From positions 2,863,228 to 2,927,227 of the forward strand of contig CP121319.1 of the NCBI GenBank assembly GCA_043584915.1: a stretch of 64,000 nt of DNA, given 5' to 3'. The stretch comes from Fluviicola sp. GTDB lineage: Bacteria; Bacteroidota; Bacteroidia; Flavobacteriales_D; Crocinitomicaceae. The notes under the pieces are model-generated. The model made no database searches and was not told where the DNA came from. It was given only the letters and a program-made list of their open reading frames with translations. Made by a program: the position numbers and the translations under genes. Shown here piece by piece: positions 8,174-9,069 of the stretch; positions within the stretch are counted from its first letter, which is position 1, and every line of letters starts with the position of its first letter.

Positions 8174-9069
8174 TTACGATACAAAGCGACCTTCTTTCGT
8201 GTATTCCCGTTTAACCCCTTCAATCAAGGCATCGTATTCCAACGCTTCTGCTCCCGTTTCTAATTGTCTCAGGCAAGCATAATGAATGATGTTTAAAATA
8301 TTCGCTCCCGTGATGTCAAATTCTGAAGCAAAATCTTCAAGAGAAACACCATCTCCGAGAGTTACATTTGCAGGCAGGCTTTTTTGCCAAAGTTGTAAAC
8401 GCTGCTCATAATCTGGAGTACGAAATTCAACAATACTGTTAAATCGACGGGTAAAGGCATCATCAATATTGTTTTTGAAATTCGAAGCTAGAATAACCAA
8501 GCCCGGGTGTGCCTCGATTCGCTGAAGGAGATACGAAACCTCCTGATTCGCGTATTTATCGTGTGCATCGCGGACACTCGTTCGTTTTCCAAAAATGGCA
8601 TCGGCTTCGTCGAAAAATAAAATCCAGTCTTTGATAACACGCCCAATTCAAAAAGCTTTGAATCGAATTCAAAATAATCTCTTTTAACGAGTTTATCCGT
8701 GTCATTGTTTCCTGCCATTATAAAGAGGGCAGTTGTTCCCGTAGGAAGCATTCCTTTTTGATTTTTACCCATCACACCTCCGAAATCATAGAAGTCGATG
8801 ATAGAGTTCATGTAATCCAACAAGATTCTCTCGAAAAAACCAGGGTAGAGATGTGGCGTAAGCGCTACTAGTATCATAACGACCTCATCCTCGGTTAATT
8901 CATTTTCAAGGATAAGTGCGTTTAAAGGGTGCTGTGTGCCTTCTGTAATGACGAGTTCAGGCTTGGGTGTAATGTCTTCCATCTCCAGGCTCGTCTCAAT
9001 GCGATGTGAAAGGTATTGCTCCAGATAAACATACAGGGCGCTTAAATTATTTGCTGCATCTGCGATCAT
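8174..9069 (-). pseudogene. eCIS AAA+ ATPase (Afp15-like) with an internal out-of-frame deletion that removes Walker A
   Basis: ORF 8488-9069 aligns with the N-domain of the paralog at 37620-38912. The frame of ORF 8174-8500, extended upstream, reads DWILFFDEADAIFGKR (Walker B), then LVILASN and RRF. About 155 codons between the two parts, including GPSGTGKS, are missing. The junction is near 8636-8640 and shifts the frame. Confidence 0.75.

Follow-up and report, generated by a model that had tools for sequence, protein, structure and literature searches.

A 439-bp frameshifting deletion in the resident AAA+ ATPase gene of a Fluviicola eCIS and an old satellite paralog that probably did not replace it

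Experiments on two eCIS show what becomes of a particle whose AAA+ ATPase is missing. In the PVC system, particles still form in the absence of Pvc15 but carry no payload, and loading requires the ATPase activity (PMC11495950). In AlgoCIS, either deletion of Alg15 or the E292A substitution of its Walker B glutamate gives normal-looking particles that are empty, and Alg15 itself is not part of the particle; the authors of that study hypothesize that each loading sequence is recognized by its own AAA+ protein (bioRxiv 10.64898/2026.05.27.728243). A homolog of Afp15 is encoded in >85 % of eCIS loci (PMC6899500). The original prediction for the locus described here held that such an ATPase is needed for assembly or loading, and these two studies uphold the part about loading but not the part about assembly (PMC11495950; bioRxiv 10.64898/2026.05.27.728243). 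Because the mutants of both systems are empty but assembled, deletion of the ATPase alone would predict empty rather than absent particles.

The closest experimental model for the eCIS analyzed here is AlgoCIS of Algoriphagus machipongonensis, another member of the Bacteroidota. [quoted passage not shown] The Walker B glutamate is residue 292 in Alg15 and residue 301 in P0002, the intact ortholog of the window ATPase in a sister genome, which suggests that the two proteins are similar in size. Unlike Alg15, however, the copy in the window is a pseudogene without residues 147-293, and it is likened to Alg15 by description. Pvc15 of Photorhabdus PVC and Afp15 of Serratia Afp are also eCIS-resident ATPases of the classic AAA clade, but Pvc15 consists of N, D1, and D2 with two AAA modules, whereas the family found in the window has one AAA module and a different N-domain.

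The window eCIS occupies the minus strand from ~27493 to 3905 and is collinear with three related loci, L001-L003. Its genes follow the Pfam order cap (Pvc16_N), sheath, gp19-like tube, CIS_tube, VgrG-like spike, Baseplate_J, PKD protein, CIS_TMP, and eCIS_core/DUF4157, so that sheath, tube, VgrG-like spike, baseplate J, tape measure, and Afp16-like cap are found together, as in clusters of the Afp/PVC/AlgoCIS kind. Across 9099-27493 (minus strand) the matching models are Pvc16_N, Phage_sheath_1, Phage_T4_gp19, CIS_tube, Phage_base_V, Baseplate_J, and CIS_TMP; the Phage_sheath_1 match (E 3e-5, 24 bits) lies under Pfam's own cut-off of 31.4. Two of the core genes are damaged, the ATPase gene by the loss of 439 bp and a baseplate gene by a 5-bp frameshift. 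The features of the cluster are as follows.

3905-8143, minus strand: likely eCIS cargo of 1412 aa, Pfam eCIS_core E 5e-28, with DUF4157/eCIS_core at residues 278-352
8174-8631, minus strand: 3' remnant of the eCIS-resident AAA+ ATPase gene, encoding the last 151 residues with Walker B (ILFFDEAD), sensor 1, Arg finger, lid domain, and native stop
8629-8634, minus strand: deletion junction, at which GTGTTATCA runs directly into AAGACTGG, placed by DNA alignment with L001; the downstream frame is -1
8632-9069, minus strand: 5' remnant of the same ATPase gene, native codons 1-146, covering most of the helical N-domain
9099-10586, minus strand: CIS tape-measure gene directly upstream of the ATPase, Pfam CIS_TMP E 1e-94, 495 aa as in L001
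10635-27493, minus strand: remaining structural genes, from Pfam and gene-by-gene tblastn against L001-L003
17264-20465, minus strand: baseplate gene with Baseplate_J in its C-terminal part and a 5-bp deletion at ~18539/18540

The position of the gene at 8174-9069, directly after the CIS tape-measure gene and before the DUF4157 cargo gene, and its orthology to resident ATPases support its assignment as the Afp15/Alg15-type ATPase of this eCIS. Sequence and fold of the intact ortholog mark it as a classic-clade threading unfoldase, with Cdc48/p97 and the proteasomal Rpt/PAN as nearest solved relatives. The window gene has neither Walker A nor pore loop 1, and it does not form a single ORF of ~430-470 aa. 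That this resident ATPase had been gutted by an internal deletion, as the original prediction claimed, is borne out by the alignment to orthologous eCIS ATPases, in which the DNA of L001 (10001-11335) leaves one clean 439-bp gap at window ~8631/8632. Correspondingly, the 3' piece matches only positions 60-130 of 131 in the Pfam AAA model, and the same model finds no match in the 5' piece.

The translations confirm the reading frames as they had been described, with the N-domain in ORF 8488-9069 and LVILASN and RRF in the next frame. This ORF (minus strand, 193 aa) is native as far as FEFDSKLFELGVLS, its native reading ends in YFEFDSKLFELGVLSK, and an out-of-frame run of ~46 codons follows. The other frame, 8174-8647 (minus strand), is open from 8647, where it reads DWILFFDEADAIFGKR, and continues through GLVILASN and TRRF as far as the native stop. 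According to the ORF list, this frame has no canonical start codon before a TTG at 8500, which lies past Walker B. In tblastn against L001, L002, and L003, the match passes from frame 1 to frame 3 at 8632. A frame-shifting junction had been placed at 8636-8640 and a loss of ~155 codons including Walker A had been estimated; the frame shift and the loss of Walker A both stand, whereas the junction moves to ~8631/8632 and the loss shrinks to about 147 codons (439 bp rather than ~465 bp). The 439 bp equal 146 codons plus 1 nt and correspond to 147 residues of P0002, namely 147-293; Walker A (GPPGTGKT) is lost with them, as is pore loop 1 (KYIG). In a 38-sequence family alignment, 41 of the 84 invariant columns fall within this segment. 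An AF2 model of P0002 (pLDDT 83.5) places the break within the strand at residues 145-147; the part removed comprises the small beta subdomain that ends the N-terminal region, alpha0, beta1, the P-loop, alpha1, beta2, pore loop 1, and alpha2, with the 3' remnant beginning just ahead of beta3, which bears Walker B. We infer that the two remnants cannot yield a functional ATP-binding hexameric AAA+ motor.

Several routes by which the pieces might be rejoined or otherwise explained were rejected. Ribosomal -1 frameshifting fails on two counts: the site TCA AAG does not conform to a canonical slippery heptamer, and a fused product would lack the P-loop all the same. Gene conversion or ectopic recombination with the second ATPase gene of the window (ATPase2, described below) was considered on account of a 50-nt, 82 % blastn match starting at the junction, but this match covers only the conserved Walker B region, and over the 75 nt past the junction 58-64 positions match orthologous resident ATPase genes versus 47 for ATPase2. 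For both ATPases an identity as the anti-phage ATPase IetA/IteA was also discarded, the matches being limited to the generic AAA module and far under the curated cut-offs.

To place the deletion among its relatives, we searched with the two pieces joined as a single query, which returned 7913 homologs, and inspected the best 120 for length. All of these measure 411-510 aa, save the window's own 193-aa fragment. The closest among them is P0002 (444 aa), encoded in the sister Crocinitomicaceae MAG GCA_054603075.1 (L001) directly after a 495-aa CIS_TMP gene. The remnants retain 89 % (5', residues 1-148) and 94.7 % (3', reading-frame residues 295-446) amino acid identity to L001. A single intact ATPase gene follows CIS_TMP in L001, in L002 (a Fluviicola sp. 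MAG), in L003, and in L014. The possibility that such loci naturally encode two short proteins, which the original prediction had named as fatal to its claim, is refuted by these four loci, and the full length of the best 120 homologs other than the window's own agrees with this.

The deletion appears to be evolutionarily recent, given the low dN/dS of the remnants against the sister ortholog (0.053 for the 5' piece and 0.021 for the 3' piece), and neither piece contains an extra stop codon. Unique amino acid changes number 5 in the window lineage and 0 in the sister, so any sign of lineage-specific relaxed constraint is based on just 5 substitutions. We found no direct repeats ~439 bp apart at the deletion borders, either in the orthologs or in the window, so a repeat-driven deletion or collapse was rejected and nothing here favors an assembly collapse. 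Coding sequence makes up 94 % of the window, in which single ORFs run for as many as 1960 aa without interruption. When its 64 kb were compared with the sister genome, no broken genes appeared apart from those of the eCIS and its orphan toxin cassettes.

The second lesion, newly found here, lies in the baseplate gene. A DNA alignment with three orthologs shows a 5-bp gap (CACCA) in the window copy, tblastn changes frame at 18537-18550, and the gene is split into ORFs 18474-20465 (663 aa) and 17264-18550 (428 aa), which overlap by 77 nt. It is one ORF in five relatives, with called genes of 1067 aa in L001 and L014, stop-to-stop ORFs of 1068 aa in L002 and 1071 aa in L003, and 1033 aa in L004, where it remains a single ORF though just 26-41 % identical. 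From this comparison, the 5-bp frameshift is probably a second inactivating lesion in the eCIS. An ATG in an A-rich context stands four codons upstream of the deletion, and the C-terminal half of the baseplate protein might thus be made separately. That a single operon of 24 kb carries two disruptive indels is in keeping with relaxed selection on the eCIS.

The other structural genes in 10635-27493 (cap, 314-aa protein, sheath, gp19-like tube, CIS_tube, VgrG-like spike, PAAR-like ORF, 141-aa ORF, 890-aa baseplate protein, and 1315-aa PKD protein) equal their orthologs in length, the PAAR-like ORF included. A single gp19-like tube gene follows the sheath in the window (23806-24351, minus strand); two occur in tandem in L002 (2415-3434), L003 (2466-3459), and L004 (1456-2348). 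We rejected as a further lesion the 4.7 kb with three genes that L001 has in addition between the ATPase and DUF4157 genes, since in L014 the DUF4157 gene also directly follows the ATPase and the region is therefore normally variable.

The 1412-aa protein, the likely cargo, shares 84 % identity over residues 1-1320 with a 1490-aa protein of L001 and combines an acidic, repetitive, probably disordered N-terminus with a variable C-terminus. Its N-terminal 270 residues (~7188-7900, minus strand) are acidic tandem repeats of the kind SEDDSEVQTMSDEASEVQ and look like the disordered loading sequences reported from AlgoCIS cargo. At window 1-2424 (minus strand) there are two orphan C-terminal cassettes of the DUF4157 toxin. 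In the first, the stretch 2213-2422 is conserved and matches residues 1102-1171 of the 1412-aa protein at 95.7 % identity, beyond which the frame changes and a different C-terminus follows (ORF 1137-2138); a small ORF after it, at ~745-1135, may be an immunity gene. The second cassette, at 2-660, is more broken and spreads over three frames. Elsewhere, a Kiwa defense pair was identified at 29607-31164 on the minus strand (KwaA 30574-31164 and KwaB 29607-30587; PADLOC E 6e-76 and 4e-117), in a variable spot between a ChlI/ComM-like gene and a CHAT-TPR gene that holds three small unrelated ORFs in the sister genome. Scans of the window for tRNA genes and Rfam families found nothing.

Four things are observed directly: the 439-bp deletion, the motifs lost with it, the second lesion, and relatives in which the two ATPases occur together. 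Loss of function, the young age of the event, and the role of ATPase2 are our inferences. The reading that we favor, with a probability of roughly 0.63, is that a recent 439-bp frameshifting deletion pseudogenized the resident ATPase gene, that the eCIS is most likely non-functional and in early decay, and that ATPase2 is no replacement. The deletion would have turned the gene of an Alg15/Afp15-type unfoldase into a pseudogene; ATPase loss alone would leave assembled but cargo-free particles, as in the studied relatives, and the 5-bp baseplate frameshift would add a probable assembly defect. Selection on the eCIS would then be relaxed, and the locus would represent ordinary recent gene decay rather than a hand-over to ATPase2. 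It is the frameshift in a core baseplate gene that makes a non-functional, early-decaying eCIS the most likely outcome. The original prediction had offered a choice between a defective particle and a takeover by the paralog; the baseplate frameshift makes the former more likely, and the latter finds no support in the comparisons below.

An eCIS that has lost loading alone, and that still assembles and fires particles that are empty or carry cargo independent of the resident ATPase, appears unlikely to us. It would agree with the normal-looking empty particles of mutants lacking Alg15 or Pvc15 and with the full length of all structural genes but one baseplate gene. That one gene, however, is a single ORF across the family and is split here by the 5-bp frameshift, and an empty injector has no obvious benefit, so that such a state would be transient.

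The paralog invoked for a takeover had been described as intact and 28 kb away from the resident gene, and it is indeed a complete gene of 430 codons with all AAA+ motifs. It heads a variable set of genes on the opposite strand from the eCIS.

37620-38912, plus strand: intact satellite AAA+ ATPase, here called ATPase2, 430 aa, Pfam AAA positions 1-130 of 131
38909-50079, plus strand: hypervariable module headed by ATPase2, from Pfam Ank matches and paralogy

The motifs of ATPase2 comprise Walker A GPSGTGKS, pore loop KYVG, Walker B ILFFDEGD, and the sensor/Arg-finger motifs VATN and SRRF. The two remnants of the resident gene align to its residues 1-134 and 282-408, with 25 % identity in the N-domain (E 4e-5) and 39 % in the C part. 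Rather than residing in the eCIS operon beside tape measure or cap, ATPase2 lies ~10 kb beyond its cap end, after sigma-like and TPR genes; its position is the same in L005, L006, and L007. The sister MAG encodes its ortholog P0121 (97.7 % identity, dN/dS 0.033) on the same record as the intact resident P0002 (BAAHQO010000001.1), and a third relative likewise has both ATPases intact, P0122 and P0009, on one 46.9-kb contig (SRR31864792_45449). Since both coexist intact in relatives, the two-ATPase arrangement is ancestral and ATPase2 was not recruited after the deletion. By these comparisons, ATPase2 is best described as an ancestral, deeply diverged satellite paralog rather than a replacement for the resident ATPase, and a functional tie between its locus and the eCIS, if there is any, would predate the deletion. 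Separately, the synonymous divergence of ATPase2 (37620-38912) from L005 10001-11290 is 0.33, compared with 0.69-1.29 for eCIS genes of the same genome pair, which suggests recent recombination or unusual constraint.

A neighbor-joining tree, which is rough and carries no support values, places ATPase2 in a deep clade separate from the resident ATPases, whose cluster includes P0215, encoded after a CIS_TMP gene in L013. The phylogeny of the two paralogs proposed with the original prediction therefore lends the takeover no support; ATPase2 groups instead with satellite ATPases that head toxin modules of their own. We sampled ~10 genomic contexts, in which most satellite-clade ATPases stand directly upstream of a large protein. 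Within 8-10 kb of the sampled clade-mates of ATPase2 (L008/L015, L010, L012, L016, and L017) there are no eCIS structural genes.

L010: satellite ATPase upstream of a 1252-aa eCIS_core (DUF4157) protein
L012: satellite ATPase upstream of an AHH nuclease toxin and Imm11
L016: satellite ATPase by an EndoU toxin, with a second AAA gene in tandem before the toxin
L017: satellite ATPase upstream of a 1395-aa protein
L008 and L015: GldN genes upstream of the satellite ATPase, with the contig ending soon downstream

These arrangements suggest satellite loader-toxin modules. In the window, ATPase2 is followed by five paralogs in which a signal peptide precedes a cysteine, as in lipoproteins: one at 38909-39892 (327 aa) and four in tandem at 39901-44178 (plus strand; 350-355 aa, each with a conserved CSCDSLVAAI motif after the signal peptide). 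Two of the four have ankyrin-repeat matches above the Pfam threshold, the sister genome lacks all four at this place, and they may form an immunity-like gene array. The module ends with a 1960-aa protein (44197-50079, plus strand) in which no domain, toxin domains included, was recognized. Between window and sister, identity is 81-87 % for flanking genes and 97.7 % for ATPase2, versus 38.7 % for the 327-aa protein and 31.5 % for the 1960-aa protein. The sister's giant protein is nearer to that of a more distant relative than to that of the window, an incongruence with the flanks that points to allelic replacement. The module thus looks polymorphic and recombining, headed by a conserved ATPase, and ATPase2 most likely serves the giant-protein module downstream of it. 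Among the giant proteins downstream of ATPase2 no conserved N-terminal loading signal stands out, identity being uniform at 20-40 %.

The ATPase2 module resembles Rhs/CdiA orphan cassettes and the auxiliary vgrG-adaptor-effector islands of T6SS in that a conserved accessory gene is followed by hypervariable genes and tandem paralogs. A polymorphic-toxin pattern also fits the orphan C-terminal cassettes at window 1-2424 and the clade-mates beside AHH, EndoU, and DUF4157 toxins; unlike orphan toxin modules, however, the 1960-aa protein has no recognized toxin domain. A broader and, in our estimate, improbable proposal is that Alg15-like ATPases form two lineages, eCIS-resident loaders and satellite loaders each with its own large polymorphic toxin (DUF4157, AHH, EndoU, or the 1960-aa protein with its lipoprotein-like paralogs), that such add-on loader-cargo modules extend the cargo specificity of eCIS, and that the satellite is here the only working loader left. 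Were it true, the window genome would amount to a natural loader-swap experiment.

More doubtful still is a loader switch, in which the split baseplate halves assemble, ATPase2 loads the cargo, and the resident loader became dispensable and was lost. The intact DUF4157 cargo gene, ATPase2, and 1960-aa gene are equally compatible with a working system that uses ATPase2, and apart from the two lesions the cargo and structural genes are whole. ATPase2 is under strong constraint, shares the N-domain fold family of the resident ATPase, and has kept its place ~9-10 kb past the eCIS cap in three genomes, and the ATG just upstream of the baseplate frameshift would permit a separate C-terminal half. 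Yet relatives have ATPase2 alongside an intact resident ATPase, so it was not recruited as a substitute. Its N-domain is only 25 % identical to that of the resident, where the AlgoCIS work hypothesizes loading signals specific to their own AAA+ protein; its clade-mates head toxin modules away from eCIS structural genes; and no relative examined has a divided baseplate gene, all of them encoding it as a single ORF.

An assembly or sequencing artefact, in which the real genome has an intact 444-aa ATPase and 439 bp were dropped in assembly or polishing, keeps a chance of about one in ten because exact-match metagenome scans were empty (neither the junction 28-mer nor the flanking 27-mer occurs in metagenome contigs, and an exact-protein look-up of the 193-aa ORF returned no record, so no independent sequence of the population was found) and because an artefact would look identical to these freshly broken remnants, but there are no border repeats able to collapse, losses of 439 bp and 5 bp are unlike typical homopolymer errors, the source contig spans 4.17 Mb, the 64-kb window has long uninterrupted ORFs outside the eCIS and orphan toxin cassettes and a high coding density, and two lesions in one operon suit relaxed selection better than random error.

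Returning to recent pseudogenization with early decay, the consequence for annotation is that the window eCIS should not be counted as functional; the locus would be a case of routine recent pseudogenization in an accessory toxin-delivery system. If the strain still makes particles, it would represent a natural loader knock-out with a second, divergent Alg15-like ATPase. With such a knock-out one could ask whether a loading signal works only with its own AAA+ partner, which the AlgoCIS and PVC engineering work has raised as a question without answering it. A more useful lead may be the satellite ATPases, which in several genomes immediately precede polymorphic toxins.
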